The notes under the pieces were generated by a model. The model ran no database searches. It was given only the letters and a program-made list of their open reading frames with translations, and had not been told where the DNA came from. From an uncultured Clostridia bacterium (GTDB taxonomy: Bacteria; Bacillota; Clostridia; TANB77; CAG-508): 64,000 nucleotides of DNA. The stretch covers positions 129,316-193,315 of the forward strand of contig CALXET010000002.1 in assembly GCA_944387405.1 (NCBI GenBank), in the 5' to 3' direction. Positions 18,004 to 46,689 of the stretch are shown here, piece after piece; position 1 is the first letter of the stretch, and each line of letters starts with the position of its first letter. The position numbers were made by a program, and so were the translations under genes.

Positions 18004-19023
18004 TTAGAAATCTTCATCTCCATATTCTTCTTTTAACTTCTTACTTATATATTTCATAACAGAAATTACCTTTGCATAATCCATCCTTTTAGGTCCTATA
18101 ATACCAATTGTACCAATATCTTTATCGCCTAAAATATGATTAAAAGTTATTACACTAAAATTCTTTAACTTCTCATCTGAAAGTTCATCACCAATATATA
18201 CATTTATATCTTCTGCTATACCTGTATTTAAAACGTCAGCTACTAAATCCTTTGCATCTAATGCATTCATAAAATCTTTTGCGATTTCTGCTTTTTTAAA
18301 TTCAGGTAAATCAAATGATTTATTTGTTCCTTCTAAATAAACTTCATTAGATGTAATTTTTAAAACCTTATTAATTTCATCAATTATCTTTCTTATAACT
18401 TTTATACCTGCTTTAAGCTCTGTTCCTAGATATTCTTCAAAAGAACCATTAATCTCATCCATAGATTTTCCAATTAATTTATTTGCAAATATATAATTCA
18501 AATTTCTGACTTGTTCTTCTGTAATATCTTCATCAAATTTTATTGTCGCTTCTCTTATAATTCCTGACTCTGTTAAAATTATTGCCATTAAAACATTTGA
18601 ACCTAATAAAACAAATTTAATATCCATAATAGTATGTTCTTCAACATTAGGTCCTACTGCAATCGTTGTATAATGAGTTACCTCTGAAAGAGTCGTTGTA
18701 GCTATCTTTGTTATATCTTCAAGCTCATTTACCTTTGTCTCTAGCTTAGATTTTATATATTCTATTTCTTTTTTTGTAAGTTTATCTTCTGTTAATAATT
18801 CATCTATATAATATCTATAACCTTGTTGAGATGGAATTCTACCAGCTGAAGTATGAGGCTTATCTAAATAACCTGCCTGCTCAAGTTCTGCCATTTCATT
18901 TCTTATTGTAGCACTACTACAATTTAGTGCTTTTACTAGGCTTCCCGAACTTACTGGCTCAGCTTTGTCAATGTATTCTTCTACTATTGCTTGAAGTATT
19001 TTTTTCTTTCTATCGTCAAGCAT
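18004..19023 (-). CDS. hrcA: heat-inducible transcription repressor HrcA
   Basis: LDDRKKKILQAIVEEY...winged-helix N-terminus. Start at 19023 with RBS gagaggtga; the ORF-track start at 19038 overlaps the RBS. Confidence 0.9.
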   Translation of the reverse strand: MLDDRKKKILQAIVEEYIDKAEPVSSGSLVKALNCSSATIRNEMAELEQAGYLDKPHTSAGRIPSQQGYRYYIDELLTEDKLTKKEIEYIKSKLETKVNELEDITKIATTTLSEVTHYTTIAVGPNVEEHTIMDIKFVLLGSNVLMAIILTESGIIREATIKFDEDITEEQVRNLNYIFANKLIGKSMDEINGSFEEYLGTELKAGIKVIRKIIDEINKVLKITSNEVYLEGTNKSFDLPEFKKAEIAKDFMNALDAKDLVADVLNTGIAEDINVYIGDELSDEKLKNFSVITFNHILGDKDIGTIGIIGPKRMDYAKVISVMKYISKKLKEEYGDEDF

Positions 19024-19039
19024 ATTTTCACCTCTCATA

Positions 19040-19066
19040 TTAGCAAACTATATTCTCTTTTGCTAA
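19040..19066 (-). promoter_or_regulatory. CIRCE-like HrcA operator 1
   Basis: TTAGCAaaC-N9-ttTTGCTAA, a 9-9-9 inverted repeat resembling consensus TTAGCACTC-N9-GAGTGCTAA; directly upstream of the hrcA RBS. Confidence 0.6.
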
Positions 19067-19102
19067 CATAAATATATTATACCCATTTTTAGCAATTGTC
19101 AA
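19067..19102 (-). promoter_or_regulatory. sigmaA-type promoter of hrcA operon
   Basis: Minus strand TTGACA-15nt-TATAAT (ttgacaattgctaaaaatgggtataat). Confidence 0.5.
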
Positions 19103-19115
19103 TAGAGATTGCTAA
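19089..19115 (-). promoter_or_regulatory. CIRCE-like HrcA operator 2 overlapping -35
   Basis: TTAGCAatT-N9-gAtTGCTAA inverted repeat. Confidence 0.6.
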
Positions 19116-19272
19116 TTTTTTTATTATTTATTTAATTTTTTTATCAAATGATAATAGACAGTAAGAAAAAATAAATAAATATATAATCATATTTATCATG
19201 AGCATGGATACTCCATTTTTCTTACAGCTTGTGATATACTTTGCAAAAACACTTTGAAATAGAGGTGCTTTT

Positions 19273-19482
19273 ATGGATGCTTTAAAAGATAAGTTTTTTT
19301 CTGCATATGCAGAAGTATTTGATGAAAAAGGAAACCCAAAAGCCTGTGGAAGGCGGAAGTGTTCTGAGCTTATAGAACTCTGCTATCAGATTGATGGCAA
19401 AAGTGATTTTGGAAATGTACAGACCGGAATCATGAATGTTTCAAATATCCTTAGTCTTAAGGAAAAACTTTCTCAAAATTAA
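19273..19482 (+). CDS. hypothetical 69-aa protein on higher-GC cassette F
   Basis: RBS agaggtg; TGTGATATACT extended -10 at ~19230; higher GC; followed by a strong terminator shared with the convergent hemW. Confidence 0.5.
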   Translation: MDALKDKFFSAYAEVFDEKGNPKACGRRKCSELIELCYQIDGKSDFGNVQTGIMNVSNILSLKEKLSQN

Positions 19483-19556
19483 TTTTTTGGCCTTTATGGA
19501 GTATCCAAGAAAGCTAATATAGCATCTGTATTACGCAGAACTTATGTTACATGAAA

Positions 19557-19598
19557 AAGAGGGTGACTTTGATAAAGTTCACCCTCTTTTTGCTTTTT
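19557..19598. terminator. bidirectional intrinsic terminator (cassette F / hemW)
   Basis: Stem aagagggtgacttt/aagttcaccctctt around loop gata, T-tract downstream on the plus strand and A-tract upstream. Confidence 0.7.
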
Positions 19599-20727
19599 AT
19601 ATAAATTCTTCCCATACTATATTTGCAAAATCTAATCCTTTTTTAGTAAGTTTTATATCATCTAAATCTACTTCGATTAGATCTTCATCTGTAAGTTTAC
19701 TAATTTCGAATCTAAAATATAATAATGGATTTAAATTAAACTTTCTTTCAAATTCTGATATAGACACTCCATCTATTTTTCTAAGTCCTAACATCATATA
19801 TTCTTTTGCAAGTTCTTCTCTATTCATTTTTTCTTCTATATCTCTACTTTTAAAATTAAAAATATATTCTGATAGAATCTTTTTATTCGAAAATCTTATT
19901 CCATCTATAAAACTATGAGCTGCCGCACCAAATCCAAAATATTCTTTTTGATTCCAACAATTTAGATTGTGTTTTGATTCATATCCTTCTTTTGCGAAAT
20001 TAGATATCTCATAATGTCTATACCCTTTTTCTTCTAACGTGTTTTTTATATACCAATACATTTGTCTTTCTATATCTTCACTTGGTAAGTTATACCCATC
20101 AGCATTTTCTTCTATTAGTTCCTTTATTTTAGTTCCATTTTCAACTATTAATGAATATGTAGAAATATGCTCTGGGCTAAGTTCTATAATTTTTTCTAAA
20201 TCTAATTTTAAATCATCTAAACTCTCATCTGGCAGAGAAAATATCAAATCAACATTAATATTACTAAATCCTAATTTTCTTGCTAAATTATACGTACTTA
20301 AAAATTCACTATATGTATGTATTCTTCCAATCTTTTTAAGCAAATTATCATTTGTCGTTTGCAAACCTATACTTAATCTGTTTATTCCACACATTTGATA
20401 TGTCTTTAACTTTTCTTCTGTTATTGTACCTGGATTTACTTCTAAGGTTATTTCTGCATTAGAAGAAATATTAAAATTTCTTCTTATATTTTCTAAAAGT
20501 AATTTAATATATTTACTCTCCAAAAATGAAGGAGTTCCTCCGCCAAAATAAATTGTTGATACAATGTGATTTTTAGTAAATTCATTTGACGTATCTTCAA
20601 TCTCTTTTTTTACTGTCTCTACATATGAGTCTATTTTTTCATATTTGTTATCATATGATACAAAATCACAATAATAACATTTCCTTTTACAAAAAGGTAT
20701 ATGCACATATATTCCTATTTCTTTCAT
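19597..20727 (-). CDS. hemW: radical SAM heme chaperone HemW (coproporphyrinogen III oxidase-like)
   Basis: HIPFCKRKCYYCDF (CxxxCxxC), GGGTPS, HemN/HemW C-terminal domain. Confidence 0.85.
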   Translation of the reverse strand: MKEIGIYVHIPFCKRKCYYCDFVSYDNKYEKIDSYVETVKKEIEDTSNEFTKNHIVSTIYFGGGTPSFLESKYIKLLLENIRRNFNISSNAEITLEVNPGTITEEKLKTYQMCGINRLSIGLQTTNDNLLKKIGRIHTYSEFLSTYNLARKLGFSNINVDLIFSLPDESLDDLKLDLEKIIELSPEHISTYSLIVENGTKIKELIEENADGYNLPSEDIERQMYWYIKNTLEEKGYRHYEISNFAKEGYESKHNLNCWNQKEYFGFGAAAHSFIDGIRFSNKKILSEYIFNFKSRDIEEKMNREELAKEYMMLGLRKIDGVSISEFERKFNLNPLLYFRFEISKLTDEDLIEVDLDDIKLTKKGLDFANIVWEEFI

Positions 20728-20730
20728 ACA

Positions 20731-21582
20731 TTAACTTCCTTTTCTTATTTCATCTGCATATTCTTGAATTTTTTTTAGTCTATGGTTAACTCCAGATTTT
20801 CCTATTGGATTTTCTAACATTTGTCCTAATTCCTTTAAACTTATATCAGGATTTTCAAGTCTTAATTCAGCAATTTCTACTAGATAATCTGGCATTGAAT
20901 CAAACTTTTTCATTTTCTTTAAAAACTTAATATCTTCAATTTGTTTAACAGATGCATTTACAATTTTATTTAAATTCGCTGTTTCACAGTTTACAAGTCT
21001 ATTTACATTATTTCTTGTGTCTCTCAACACTCTTATCTCTTCAAAAGAAAGAACTGATTTAGTAGCTCCAATTAAAGCTAAAAATTTAGAAATTTCTTCT
21101 CCTTCTTTAATATAAATCGTATTATTTGAATCTAATAATTTAATTTTTATTCCAAACATTTTTATAATATTTTGCAAATACATTGCATTTTCTTTACTCT
21201 TAAGTAATATCTCCAAATGATATTTTTTATTTGGATCATTTATTGAACCGCTTCCCAAGAAAGCTCCTCTAACTATTGCCTTTAATTCTTCTTCATCTGT
21301 AATAGTTTCTTCTCTTTTTAATTTTGATAAATCACTTTTTTTTATTTTTGAAACAAAGACTTTTCTTTTTATTTCTGGTTCATAATCTATTTTTAAATTA
21401 AATAACAGTTTATATAATCTTTCGATATTAAATTCATTTTCAGTGATAAAATAAACATAATCATCTTCTATAGTTGTATTTCCTGATAGCATATATCCAA
21501 GCACTTCTGCCTCTACTATGTTAATCTTATGAAATATATTCATTTTACTTAATTCCTCTTTTACACTCGATGAAAAAGACAT
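20731..21582 (-). CDS. whiA: sporulation/cell-division transcriptional regulator WhiA
   Basis: MSFSSSVKEELS N-terminus; C-terminal HTH GKSGVNHRLKKIQ typical of WhiA. Confidence 0.75.
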   Translation of the reverse strand: MSFSSSVKEELSKMNIFHKINIVEAEVLGYMLSGNTTIEDDYVYFITENEFNIERLYKLLFNLKIDYEPEIKRKVFVSKIKKSDLSKLKREETITDEEELKAIVRGAFLGSGSINDPNKKYHLEILLKSKENAMYLQNIIKMFGIKIKLLDSNNTIYIKEGEEISKFLALIGATKSVLSFEEIRVLRDTRNNVNRLVNCETANLNKIVNASVKQIEDIKFLKKMKKFDSMPDYLVEIAELRLENPDISLKELGQMLENPIGKSGVNHRLKKIQEYADEIRKGS

Positions 21583-21585
21583 CTC

Positions 21586-22458
21586 CTACCCCTTTCTAGA
21601 AATAATTACTCGATCATTTTCTCCATAATCTTTTAAACAACTAATATCAACATAACCATTTTTTATTAAAATATCTGATACACTTTCTTTTTGATTATAT
21701 CCTATTTCATAACACAAAAATCCATTTTTATTTAAATATTCTTTAGCTATCTTCGATATTTTTCTATAAAAATCTAAACCATCTATTCCACCATCTAATG
21801 CAATTACTGGTTCTTTTTTTACATTTTCATCTAAGTTTTTAATTACACCTTTTTCGATATATGGAGGATTTGAAACGATTATATCAAATTTTATATTCTT
21901 TATATTAGTAAACAAATCTGATTCTATAAAATTAATTTCTACATTATTTCTTAATGCATTCTCTTTTGCAATATCTAAAGCTTTTATACTTACATCAGAT
22001 GCAAAGTATTTTATATTATAATCTTTTAAATATTTTGCTAAAGAAATTATTATAGCTCCAGTGCCTGTACACATGTCTAATATATTAATTTCTTCTTTTT
22101 TAACCTTTTTAAAAGTTTTACTATAATTATTTTTTACTAAATTTATAACATTTTCGACTAACACTTCTGTGTCACTTCTTGGAATTAACACATTTTCATT
22201 TACTAATAATTCAAGTCCCATGAATTGCTGCTTTTTTAAAATATATTGTATTGGTTCATTTTCTATTAATCTATCTATATAACATAAAAATAAACTTTCA
22301 TCACTTTTTTTTACGTCTTCATCTTGATGAATCATTAAATATTCTCTTTTTTTATTTAAAACATATTCTAATAACATTTTAGATTTTAACAAAGACTCAT
22401 CTATATTATTTTTATCTAATTTATTTTTACCATATCTTATTAGATCTTTTATAGTCAT
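21586..22458 (-). CDS. prmC: release factor glutamine methyltransferase PrmC/HemK family
   Basis: MCTGTGAI (SAM binding) and VSNPPYI (NPPY) motifs. Confidence 0.8.
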   Translation of the reverse strand: MTIKDLIRYGKNKLDKNNIDESLLKSKMLLEYVLNKKREYLMIHQDEDVKKSDESLFLCYIDRLIENEPIQYILKKQQFMGLELLVNENVLIPRSDTEVLVENVINLVKNNYSKTFKKVKKEEINILDMCTGTGAIIISLAKYLKDYNIKYFASDVSIKALDIAKENALRNNVEINFIESDLFTNIKNIKFDIIVSNPPYIEKGVIKNLDENVKKEPVIALDGGIDGLDFYRKISKIAKEYLNKNGFLCYEIGYNQKESVSDILIKNGYVDISCLKDYGENDRVIISRKG

Positions 22459-22516
22459 TATATCCTCCTATTTTTCGATATAATTTTACCATCTTAACGT
22501 AAAAAAAGCAATAAAA

Positions 22517-22549
22517 TAAACTCTTCTAGAAAATCTCTCTAGAAGAGTT
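22517..22549 (-). terminator. intrinsic terminator between the GC-rich non-coding element and prmC
   Basis: Perfect 13-bp palindrome aaactcttctaga/tctagaagagttt with loop aaatctc, T-rich after it on the minus strand. Confidence 0.55.
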
Positions 22550-22559
22550 TATTATAAAA

Positions 22560-22765
22560 TTTAATATAAAAACATGCCCCACATTAGCCGTTAATGTAAA
22601 GAATTTTTAATGGACCTGTACTCACACAGGTGGGTGCCCTCCTGAATACTCCTGGGTTTCTTATATAAATATAAGCATACACGCCATACTCAGAGACCGA
22701 AGCTCCCTTCTCCAAACTTGTAGGTTCTAAAAACTCTGTCCTCACGCACCATGCAGGGATTGATA
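22560..22765 (-). ncRNA. candidate structured small RNA (about 200 nt; 6S-like size; identity unresolved)
   Basis: Only GC-richer non-coding stretch in a 515-nt ORF-free gap. Several stems form with G-U pairs only when read on the minus strand: long-range CCCUGCAUG...CAUGUGGGG closing helix about 185 nt apart, hairpin CCUGU-GUGAGU-ACAGG, C(UUCG)G tetraloop. A possible -10 (gataat) lies upstream and a terminator downstream. Confidence 0.4.
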
Positions 22766-22973
22766 TTATCTATTCATCATTTATTTTTTATTATATTATC
22801 ATATAAAAAAGCTATTATCAAAATATAAAAAATCTTCTATAACACTATTATATTCGAATTTAATATAATTTACTTTATTTTTTATATATTATTCTCACTA
22901 ATTTATATCATTTTACCATTTGATTTTTTTGTAGTTTTCTAGTATCTATGCAGAATAAAATATATTATGAATA

Positions 22974-23861
22974 TTATTTTTTAAAATCAGGAACATATTT
23001 CTCTTCATTTTCATCTTCAATATAATCCTGCATATATCCATTTTCTACATCAAGTGAAAATAAGAAATCTTCTACCTCTTTATATTCATCATAATTAATT
23101 TTTCTATTAATATCTTTAATGTTTTTGGCTTTATAACTTGGAAAATATTGAGTCATCAGACTAATATATACATCTTTATCAATATTATCATTTATCCACT
23201 GTAAAACTTTTTTAGTATTATCTATATGATTTGGAAGAATCAAATGTCTTATAATTAGTCCTTTTTCTATTATTCCATACTTATTTAATTTTGGAGATCC
23301 AACTTGTCTATACATTTCTTTTATTGCTTCTTTAGCTATTTCAAAATAATTATCTATACCAGATAATCTTTTGGCAAGTTCATTATCTGAATATTTAAAA
23401 TCCGGTAAATAAATATCAACATAACCATCTAAAAGTTTTAAAGTTTCAATTTTCTCATATCCACTTGTATTATATAATATTGGAATTTTTAATCCTTTCT
23501 CTTTAGCTATTTTTATCGCATTTATAATTTGATATACATATGGTGTTGGTGTAACTAAATTTATATTATTTGCTTTTTTATTTTGAAGCTCAATAAAAAT
23601 ATCAGCTAATTCTTCATCTGAAATCTCTTTTCCATATTCCTCACTACTTATCTCATAATTCTGACAAAAAACACATTTTAAATTACAATTACTAAAAAAT
23701 ACTGTGCCAGAACCTGATTTTCCACTTATACATGGCTCTTCATTATAATGAAGAGATGATATTGCATATCTTACATTTTTCCCAGCCCTGCATTTTCCTA
23801 AAAAGCCTTCCTTTCTATTTACATTACAATTAAATGGACATAAGTTACACTTATCTAGCAT
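22974..23861 (-). CDS. radical SAM protein, PflX/COG1313-like activating-enzyme family
   Basis: CNLCPFNCN... and SNCNLKCVFCQNYEIS Cys clusters. Confidence 0.65.
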   Translation of the reverse strand: MLDKCNLCPFNCNVNRKEGFLGKCRAGKNVRYAISSLHYNEEPCISGKSGSGTVFFSNCNLKCVFCQNYEISSEEYGKEISDEELADIFIELQNKKANNINLVTPTPYVYQIINAIKIAKEKGLKIPILYNTSGYEKIETLKLLDGYVDIYLPDFKYSDNELAKRLSGIDNYFEIAKEAIKEMYRQVGSPKLNKYGIIEKGLIIRHLILPNHIDNTKKVLQWINDNIDKDVYISLMTQYFPSYKAKNIKDINRKINYDEYKEVEDFLFSLDVENGYMQDYIEDENEEKYVPDFKK

Positions 23862-23998: not shown

Positions 23999-24625
23999 TT
24001 ATTTTATACCAAAAATCCTATCTCCCGCATCACCAAGTCCAGGCACAATATATCCAATTTCATTTAAATGATCATCTATTTGTGCGCAATATATATCTAC
24101 ATCTGGATATGCCTCTGTTACTCTTTTTAGTCCCTCTGGAGCTGCTATTAAGCATAAAAATTTAATTTTCTTTACTCCATCTTCTTTCATCATTTTAATA
24201 GCATCTAAAGCAGATCCACCCGTAGCAAGCATTGGATCTAATAATAAAACTTCTCTATTTTTTATATCCTTTGGAACTTTATAATAATACCTTACAGGCT
24301 CTAATGTTTCTTCGTTTCTATATAAACCAATAACACCTATTTTAGCATTTGGTACGATTTTAGTAATTCCATTAGACATTCCTAGTCCAGCTCTCAAAAT
24401 TGGAACAAAAGCATATCTATCTTCATTTATTCTTTTCCCTTTTGTTTTTGCCATTGGTGTTTCTATATCTACATCATCTAAAACAGCATCTTTCATAGCT
24501 TCATAACATAAAAACATAGCTATTTCTTCTGCAAGTTCTCTGAATTCTTTTGTTCCAGTAGACTTATCTCTTAAAATAGACACTTTATGCAATACTAAAG
24601 GATGATTTAATTCAATAACACTCAT
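23999..24625 (-). CDS. upp: uracil phosphoribosyltransferase
   Basis: HPLVLHKVSILRD...LLDPMLATGGS PRPP-binding motif. Confidence 0.9.
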   Translation of the reverse strand: MSVIELNHPLVLHKVSILRDKSTGTKEFRELAEEIAMFLCYEAMKDAVLDDVDIETPMAKTKGKRINEDRYAFVPILRAGLGMSNGITKIVPNAKIGVIGLYRNEETLEPVRYYYKVPKDIKNREVLLLDPMLATGGSALDAIKMMKEDGVKKIKFLCLIAAPEGLKRVTEAYPDVDIYCAQIDDHLNEIGYIVPGLGDAGDRIFGIK

Positions 24626-24699
24626 TTACATACCTCTTTTCTATATATAATTTATTTTATCTTTTGTACTTCTATAATTATATTTATTTTTATTAATTA

Positions 24700-26208
24700 T
24701 TATTTCTTCTTTTTATTTTGCTTATTATTTTTATTATTCTCCTGACCTTTTTTACTATTTTCATCTTTATTCTTATTGTTACCTACATCTTTACTCAAAT
24801 CATTTTTTATTGATTTGATCTCTTCTTTTATTTCTATAATATCTTCTTTTATTTTTTTAATTTCTTCTTTAGTCTCTCCCACTTCTATTTTTTCATCTTT
24901 ATTTTCTTTATCTTCTTTAGCACTTTCATCTACTTCATTAGGTAATAAAAGATTTAATAAGATACCTATTACGGCTGCTAAACTCATACCTGAAATTGTA
25001 ACTGATAAATCTCCATGAACTATTGATATTGCAGCTCCTCCAAGGCCTAGTACAAGCATTGTTGAAGCAACGATTACATTTTTTGTTTTATTAAAATCTA
25101 TTTGGTTTTCAATTAATACTTTTAAACCATTAACTGAAATAAATCCATATAAAAGTAATGATACTCCTCCAAGTACAGGATCTGGAATCGTAGTTACTAG
25201 AGCCGTAAATTTTCCTAAAAATCCAAGTGCTATAGCTATTATAGCTGCAAGACCTATTACCCATACAGAAGCAATTTTCGTCATACCTACTACTGAAGTA
25301 TTTTCACCATATGTTGTATTAGCAGGTCCTCCTAAAGCTCCTGCTACAAATGTAGCAATACCGTCTCCTAAAAGAGTTCTATTCAATCCAGGATTTTTTA
25401 ATAAATCTTTTCCTATTATAGCACTTAATGCTGTATGATCTCCTATATGTTCTGCCATTGTTACTAGTGCAATCGGTGCAATTGTAAGAATTGCAGAGAA
25501 GTTAATACTATAATGTACAAATGGAATTATAAATTTTGGAACACTAAAGAATGCAGCTTCTGCAACTGGAGTAAAATCTATCATTCCAAGAACAACTGCT
25601 GTTAAATATCCTGAAACAATTCCTATTAAAAATGGGATTATTTTTAAAAATCCTTTTCCTCTAACTGCAACTATCGCAGTTACTAAAAAGGATACTAGTG
25701 CAACTATTACACCTTTCCACTCTATTGCCCCTTCTCCTGCAATTCCTATTTGTCCAATTGCAGATGGAGCTAAACCTAAACCTATAATCATAATCATTGG
25801 TCCTATAACAACCGGAGGTAATAATTTATCAATCCAGCCTTTGCCTATTAAAGTAATTATGATTGCAAATACTACATATATCAAACCTACAACCATAATT
25901 CCTGTCATTGCTCCTGATATTCCACCTTTTAAATAAGCGGCTGTTATGGGAACAATGAAGGCAAAAGAACTTCCTAAATATACTGGTGATTTAGCTTTTG
26001 TACATAAAATATAAATTAAAGTTCCTATACCTGATGTAACTAGTGCTACAGGTATTGTAAGTACTTCTGTTCCTGCTGCTGAATTTACTAAGATTGGAAC
26101 TAAGATAGTTGCTCCAAACATAGCAAATACGTGTTGGAAAGCAAGTATTATCCACTTTCCAATAGTTGGTTTCTCATTAACGTCTAATACTAGTTCTGTT
26201 TTACTCAT
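24700..26208 (-). CDS. pyrP: uracil/xanthine permease (NCS2) with ~85-aa Lys/Glu-rich C-terminal tail
   Basis: Multi-TM NCS2 permease body directly upstream of upp; charged low-complexity tail EIKKIKEDIIEIKEEIK...NKQNKKKK. Confidence 0.8.
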   Translation of the reverse strand: MSKTELVLDVNEKPTIGKWIILAFQHVFAMFGATILVPILVNSAAGTEVLTIPVALVTSGIGTLIYILCTKAKSPVYLGSSFAFIVPITAAYLKGGISGAMTGIMVVGLIYVVFAIIITLIGKGWIDKLLPPVVIGPMIMIIGLGLAPSAIGQIGIAGEGAIEWKGVIVALVSFLVTAIVAVRGKGFLKIIPFLIGIVSGYLTAVVLGMIDFTPVAEAAFFSVPKFIIPFVHYSINFSAILTIAPIALVTMAEHIGDHTALSAIIGKDLLKNPGLNRTLLGDGIATFVAGALGGPANTTYGENTSVVGMTKIASVWVIGLAAIIAIALGFLGKFTALVTTIPDPVLGGVSLLLYGFISVNGLKVLIENQIDFNKTKNVIVASTMLVLGLGGAAISIVHGDLSVTISGMSLAAVIGILLNLLLPNEVDESAKEDKENKDEKIEVGETKEEIKKIKEDIIEIKEEIKSIKNDLSKDVGNNKNKDENSKKGQENNKNNKQNKKKK

Positions 26209-46563: not shown

Positions 46564-46627
46564 TTTTGAAAAACAATAAAAAAAGATGAAAAAGGTTATC
46601 TTTTTCATCTAAAGTGGTGACCCCTAC
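46564..46627. repeat. 64-bp direct repeat, copy B (overlaps the tRNA-Glu 3' end)
   Basis: See copy A. Confidence 0.85.
46574..46609 (-). terminator. intrinsic terminator after tRNA-Glu
   Basis: Stem gatgaaaaag/ctttttcatc with loop gttatc (minus-sense GAUGAAAAAG-AUAACC-UUUUUCAUC) followed by UUUUUUUAUUG. Confidence 0.65.
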
Positions 46628-46689
46628 GGGAATCGAACCCATGATTCCACCTTGAGAGGGTGGCGTCTTAACCGCTTGACCAAGGGGCC
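46615..46689 (-). tRNA. tRNA-Glu (anticodon CUC)
   Basis: Minus-sense GGCCCCUUGGUCAAGCGGUUAAGACGCCACCCUCUCAAGGUGGAAUCAUGGGUUCGAUUCCCGUAGGGGUCACCA: 7-bp acceptor stem, D loop, anticodon loop CUCUCAA, T-loop GGUUCGAUUCC, encoded CCA; near-identical to Bacillus tRNA-Glu. Confidence 0.85.

Follow-up and report, generated by a model that had tools for sequence, protein, structure and literature searches.

The minus strand of positions 22572-22762 almost certainly encodes a 6S RNA of the type found throughout bacteria, and this is the best explanation of the evidence taken as a whole. The positions are those of a 64,000-nucleotide stretch of DNA from an uncultured Clostridia bacterium, here called the window, which was analysed over its full length. 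6S RNA, a small RNA of wide distribution, imitates an open promoter and restrains RNA polymerase; members of the family characteristically bind the housekeeping holoenzyme, serve as template for short product RNAs (pRNAs) and are abundant, stable transcripts of stationary phase. The gene described here is a standard member of that well-known family, and as such is already known; routine Rfam annotation would label 22572-22762 as 6S RNA. What does its recognition then contribute? The main value is that of annotation, the placing of a 6S gene in an uncultured, small-genome, low-GC lineage of Clostridia, where it accounts for an island of high GC content and for the long, 'empty' gap that precedes prmC. 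Homology, structure and covariation, together with promoter-like sequences that are conserved, make up the evidence, each of them directly observed. Polymerase binding, pRNA synthesis, the ends of the transcript and the expression of this particular RNA would be expected by analogy with the 6S RNA of E. coli and the 6S-1 RNA of B. subtilis, from which the mode of action proposed below is taken.

The locus and the identity of the RNA

The gap that harbours the gene, 22459-22973, is flanked on one side by prmC and on the other by a gene for a radical-SAM protein (22974-23861), and all of the genes around it are on the minus strand.

22572-22762, minus strand: 6S RNA (ssrS) core of 191 nt, delimited by Rfam RF00013
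21586-22458, minus strand: prmC (release-factor glutamine methyltransferase; NCBIfam TIGR03534, 272 bits against a cut-off of 199), outside the RNA and downstream of it

Measured over successive 100 nt, GC content rises to as much as 0.43 at 22600-22749 against 0.14-0.25 on both sides, and that of the Rfam-matched stretch is 45% in a 64-kb window whose overall GC content is 26.9%. The GC-rich island (at about 22560-22765) to which an earlier note on this DNA had drawn attention is therefore genuine. The same note had considered the gap to be free of open reading frames, which is not strictly so, since a mechanical 53-aa ORF with a GTG start is present at 22584-22745 on the minus strand.

The whole window was scanned with the families of Rfam 15 at their gathering thresholds, and there are two matches only, the 6S RNA and a tRNA (46618-46689, minus strand), RF00013 being the sole non-tRNA family above threshold. 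The match to it runs end to end, through model positions 1-187 of 187, and scores 77.1 bits against a gathering score of 46.4 (E = 1.8e-13 for the 64-kb window); when the Rfam consensus structure is projected on the sequence, 45 of its 50 pairs are standard. The earlier note had guessed at '6S RNA or another sRNA' and had recommended a cmscan comparison with Rfam, the positive outcome of which, full-length and well above 46.4 bits, bears out the first half of the guess. No riboswitch, SRP or other Rfam family reaches its threshold in the gap, and no riboswitch, T-box or leader family does so anywhere in the 64-kb window, the region upstream of uraA-upp (23999-26208) included. Among candidates with scores below threshold, the trpB motif (27.8 bits against the 59 needed) and VrrA cover just the terminator hairpin described below, and snoR25 and SNORD57 fall on the 3' end of the radical-SAM gene, where they are a chance fit to A/T-rich sequence; all were discarded. 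A blastn comparison of the whole gap with a plasmid collection gave no match and is uninformative either way.

Relatives of the gene

The PrmC relatives found in GTDB representative genomes are from uncultured Clostridia MAGs, the closest (L001) being a circular MAG of 1.8 Mb whose PrmC is 74% identical to that of the window. The neighbouring proteins of the two are 87-99% identical (upp 99, uraA 98, hrcA 95, whiA 92, radical SAM 91, hemW 87), and PrmC appears to be faster-evolving here, or to have been replaced. In the four closest loci (L001, L002, L003 and L011) Rfam places a 6S RNA just upstream of prmC, with scores of 80-96 bits. To these were added loci from metagenome contigs that had been scanned with two motifs, from the apical arm and the 3' bubble; the scan gave 120 loci, and those in which 6S was found are all of low G+C around it. 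A covariance model was built, with the Rfam structure, from five sequences, those of the window and of the four closest loci. Applied to 100 sources (the window and 99 loci) it yielded 88 full-length matches, of which 72 are distinct, from Clostridia MAGs and from gut or rumen metagenomes. This set is biased to one clade, and the conservation within it of 21 motif bases is circular because the search pattern fixes GGCGTGTATGC and CACCCACCTG.

Transcription signals and the linkage to prmC

The signals around the RNA, all on the same strand as the genes, are as follows.

22793-22821, minus strand: predicted sigma-A promoter of the 6S gene (9/12 in the promoter scan, with TG before the -10)
22763-22786, minus strand: predicted A/U-rich 5' leader of about 24 nt, its start placed about 7 nt after the -10
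22567-22571, minus strand: U5 run, 5 nt beyond the closing stem, at which transcription may first terminate or the RNA may have its 3' end (from the sequence)
22501-22553, minus strand: intrinsic terminator, a hairpin of 17-18 bp (22515-22553) with the U-rich tail UUUAUUGCUUUUUUU (terminator scan)
22483-22511, minus strand: candidate separate promoter of prmC, with -35 TTGCTT, a 17-nt spacer and an extended -10 TGgTAAAAT (sequence inspection)
22464-22469, minus strand: RBS AGGAGG of prmC (sequence inspection)

The predicted promoter at 22793-22821 has a -35 of TTGATA (22816-22821), a 17-nt spacer and an extended -10, TGaTAATAT (22793-22801). TTG at the -35 together with an extended -10 of the form TGnTAnnAT recurs in 50 of the 69 distinct relatives that have enough upstream sequence, with 18-38 nt between the end of this conserved arrangement and the CCCU of the closing stem. 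On this basis the primary transcript in the clade would carry an A/U-rich leader of some 15-30 nt. At the other end, a U-rich tail begins within 10 nt after the GGGG of the closing stem in 64 of the 72 distinct relatives; most have no other terminator, and there the closing stem itself probably acts as one. The window carries GGGGCAUGUUUUU and then, 19 nt further on, a strong extra hairpin terminator that is common to it and L001 only. The terminator scan gave this one site, with 0.0 expected in shuffled sequences, and its hairpin has about -19.7 kcal/mol. That a terminator is present was correctly perceived in the earlier note, but it is larger than the 13 bp at 22517-22549 recorded there, having 17-18 pairs at 22515-22553. 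The 6S RNA would be transcribed from its own sigma-A-type promoter, with the -10 at 22793-22798, and transcription would end at the U-run after the closing stem, at the terminator at 22515-22553, or at both, the ends probably being trimmed afterwards. For prmC, the putative promoter between the terminator and the RBS, with its -10 at 22483-22491, falls below the -35 criterion of the promoter scan and is identical in L001.

The order 6S - prmC - whiA - hemW recurs across the clade. Of 79 loci with enough sequence (duplicates included), prmC follows on the same strand within 600 nt in 46 and at a greater distance downstream in 12 more, and in 21 no downstream prmC was detectable. Several relatives (L044, L015, L100 and L062) have prmC just 17-34 nt after the 6S RNA with only an RBS between the two, and co-transcription is likely in them because there is no room for a separate promoter. 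In the window and L001 the gap is of 113 nt (22459-22571 in the window) and contains the strong terminator and the candidate promoter. Within 3 kb of prmC, Rfam detected no 6S RNA in the loci of Lachnospira, Eubacterium and Rickettsiales (L004-L010 and L012), so the 6S-prmC synteny is specific to the clade. In the window (18004-22458, minus strand) prmC is followed by whiA, hemW and hrcA, and prfA is not a flanking gene. The 283-aa WhiA homologue matches only positions 108-304 of the 304-position model TIGR00647, its N-terminal part thus being divergent or shortened.

Could the element instead be a cis-acting leader of prmC, a riboswitch or an attenuator that steers read-through into prmC-whiA-hemW? 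It immediately precedes prmC on the same strand and is followed by a terminator, as such a leader would be, and both the conserved linkage and the very short gap in some relatives would suit it. However, no riboswitch or leader family scores in the gap, the RNA matches the full 6S model, and the same RNA exists in the 21 loci without a detectable downstream prmC. In the window, moreover, the candidate promoter and the RBS are interposed between the terminator and prmC, and co-transcription with a following gene is in any case normal for trans-acting 6S RNA too, as with E. coli ssrS and fau, which are separated by 20 nt. A prmC leader is accordingly very improbable.

For a trans-acting 6S RNA, the gene order nevertheless invites the thought that in low-GC gut and rumen Clostridia 6S and prmC-whiA-hemW constitute one conserved transcription unit, from which the window lineage has been secondarily uncoupled. 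The conserved synteny (46 of 79 loci) and the gaps of 17-34 nt with only an RBS in some relatives speak for it, and it is conceivable, though on the whole rather doubtful. Were it so, read-through of the closing stem and U-run of 6S would supply mRNA for PrmC, the release-factor methyltransferase, and for WhiA, whose expression would be tied to a strong promoter regulated by growth phase, in the manner of E. coli ssrS-fau; in the window lineage a terminator of 17 bp, inserted together with a promoter of the extended -10 kind, would have uncoupled 6S from prmC. A search of the literature on 6S synteny in Clostridia found no paper centred on the topic, and a full-text search on 6S-prmC linkage found nothing relevant. 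The linkage is a small point in the evolution of gene order, the two being apparently co-transcribed in some relatives and uncoupled in the window lineage; it is only modestly new and is not a new mechanism.

Covariation and architecture

The fold is a long, mostly double-stranded rod, with a closing stem, an internal helix, a central bubble and an apical arm.

22744-22761, minus strand: closing stem, 5' strand (RNA positions 2-19), paired with 22574-22591 in the Rfam alignment
22574-22591, minus strand: closing stem, 3' strand (RNA positions 172-189), from the Rfam alignment and covariation
22723-22732, minus strand: internal helix (P2, the downstream helix), 5' strand, UUUUAGAACC (RNA positions 31-40), paired with 147-158 in Rfam
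22708-22722, minus strand: central bubble, unpaired 5' strand (RNA positions 41-55), from Rfam and the RNAalifold consensus
22632-22707, minus strand: apical (terminal) arm with internal loops and an end loop (RNA positions 56-131), from covariation and RNAalifold
22615-22630, minus strand: 3'-bubble hairpin CCUGU-GUGAGU-ACAGG (RNA positions 133-148), from the MFE structure and the RNAalifold consensus

How far is this architecture upheld by comparison? In the alignment of the 72 distinct relatives (A3), which is fitted to the structure of the covariance model, 83.3% of cells are standard-paired, compared with 33-48% after displacement of the 3' partners by 1-3 columns, and compensatory changes, involving both sides, are found at 28 of 47 pairs; in a shuffle control none of 500 reached any of five measures. 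Such changes affect 8 pairs of the closing stem (helices 1-2) and 15 of the 22 pairs of the apical arm (helices 5-8). As that alignment had been fitted to the model, the analysis was repeated as an independent test on 37 diverse members, aligned by MAFFT alone and not fitted to the model, with RNAalifold. It too gave the closing stem, the apical arm and the hairpin of the 3' bubble, the 5' bubble was left open, and 17 of the 34 consensus pairs have compensatory changes. A structure supported by covariation is thus seen in both alignments. The folding of the minus strand that the earlier note had suggested gave a divided answer: the MFE structure does hold the 3'-bubble hairpin, but the single-sequence MFE is no better than that of shuffled sequences (z = -0.54), which fold equally well because the composition is GC-rich. 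As the MFE does not discriminate, the argument for a structured RNA is drawn from the covariance model and from comparison.

In the closing helix CCCUGCAUGGUGCGU on the 5' side (RNA positions 5-19) pairs with ACGGCUAAUGUGGGG on the 3' side (172-186), G-U pairs included, and on the minus strand the helix spans CCCUGCAUGG... to ...AAUGUGGGG. The earlier note had recognised this long-range helix and its G-U pairs; its reading of the 3' strand as CAUGUGGGG was slightly off, the actual letters being AAUGUGGGG. Further in, the 5' strand of the internal helix, UUUUAGAACC, is nearly invariant across the family and is the predicted template strand for product RNA. RNA positions 41-55, which follow it, are almost wholly unpaired in the MFE and centroid structures also. 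The hairpin in the opposite strand of the bubble, CCUGU...ACAGG, already noticed in the earlier reading of the sequence, is kept in all 72 distinct relatives as CCUG-N...N'-CAGG, and its fifth pair covaries (UA in 45, UG in 18, CG in 8 and AU in 1). Bases in the 3' half of this hairpin are also required for two Rfam pairs, 39-148 and 40-147, and the conflict leaves some doubt as to where exactly the bubble is bounded. A C-UUCG-G tetraloop, by comparison, had been proposed on the strength of letters that are indeed present at 22698-22703; it forms in neither the MFE nor the consensus structure, and was rejected as a conserved tetraloop since close relatives have UUAAA, CCAAA or UCGA in place of UUCG, the first of these being that of L001.

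These comparisons also bear on two further readings, both of them exceedingly improbable. One is that the likeness to 6S is superficial, the element being some other structured sRNA with no relation to it or a GC-rich island due to chance; in favour of this it could be said that the folding energy is indistinguishable from that of shuffles and that the score, at 77 bits, is below that of E. coli ssrS (139.8 bits). Against this, the score is 30 bits over the curated threshold with end-to-end coverage of the model, relatives reach 96 bits, none of the main helices of the 6S fold is without compensatory changes, and promoter-like and U-run signals are conserved around the RNA in relatives. The other is that the 53-aa GTG ORF at 22584-22745 specifies a small protein, which its sharing a strand with the flanking genes would allow, but the GTG falls within the closing stem and lacks a Shine-Dalgarno-like sequence just upstream, close relatives differ by indels of 1-3 nt, substitutions track base-pair covariation and not codons, and the longest stop-free forward stretch in the 72 distinct homologues is anywhere between 24 and 63 aa long (median 40); the ORF is thus not preserved among them and is ruled out as a coding gene.

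Predicted template strand and proposed mode of action

With 6S RNA as the identity, the place at which the polymerase would begin to copy it can be predicted by alignment.

22720, minus strand: predicted pRNA start site, C43, at Rfam model position 45, as is E. coli U44

E. coli ssrS was aligned to the same Rfam model, and its U44, known from experiment as the start of its product RNA, is at model position 45. By this correspondence pRNA synthesis would start at C43 (22720), and the predicted pRNA, 5'-GUAGGUUCUAAAAAC, is G-initiated; its beginning, 5'-GUAGGUUC..., is complementary to 22720-22734. The 6S-1 pRNA of B. subtilis is 5'-GUUCGGUCAAAACUA (PMC12005410) and its start site is C40 (PMC8876501). 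The template here, AGUUUUUAGAACCUAC, resembles the UAGUUUUGACCGAAC of B. subtilis 6S-1, the complement of GUUCGGUCAAAACUA (PMC12005410).

If this RNA behaves as its better studied counterparts do, the rod would pass for an open promoter and fill the active site of the housekeeping holoenzyme of RNA polymerase, which would damp transcription when nutrients are scarce. Once growth resumes, the polymerase would copy the 5' strand of the bubble from C43, yielding a G-initiated product RNA, 5'-GUAGGUUCUAAAA..., which would refold the 6S RNA and so release the enzyme. In a crude refolding that mimicked bound pRNA by forbidding the pairing of positions 29-43, 31-43 or 35-43, no clear central-bubble-collapse helix appeared. 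Beyond the individual locus, the 72 distinct 6S sequences, with their conserved promoter and 3'-bubble hairpin, could be used to improve the 6S alignment in its Firmicutes part.

Comparison with known 6S RNAs

B. subtilis 6S-1 RNA (bsrA), which is of the Firmicutes type, is likewise of about 190 nt and forms a rod with a central bubble. In it a small hairpin is pre-formed in the 3' strand of the bubble (PMC8876501); the same is predicted here, and because of this feature the RNA of the window can be assigned to the Firmicutes 6S-1 type. A G-initiated pRNA templated from a C in the 5' bubble is a property of 6S-1 and a prediction for the present RNA. The B. subtilis pre-6S-1 RNA has a single-stranded 5' leader that is removed by RNase J1 (PMC10578484), and an A/U-rich single-stranded 5' leader is predicted here too. 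The two differ in context, the gene described here being directly upstream of prmC-whiA-hemW, in the extra strong terminator that follows the RNA in the window lineage, and in that the crude constrained folding predicted no clear central-bubble-collapse helix here.

With E. coli ssrS the RNA shares the Rfam family over the full model, and U44 of the one and C43 of the other occupy the same model position. The 3' bubble strand of E. coli 6S stays open up to the synthesis of product RNA (PMC8876501), whereas here a hairpin is predicted in it in the free RNA, and the initiating nucleotide of the pRNA, A in E. coli, is predicted to be G. The downstream gene is fau in E. coli and prmC here. The 20 nt between ssrS and fau, on the same strand, have a parallel in the 17-34 nt that separate 6S from prmC in relatives of the window; in the window itself, unlike in E. 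coli, a terminator and a putative separate promoter would uncouple the 6S RNA from the gene that follows it.
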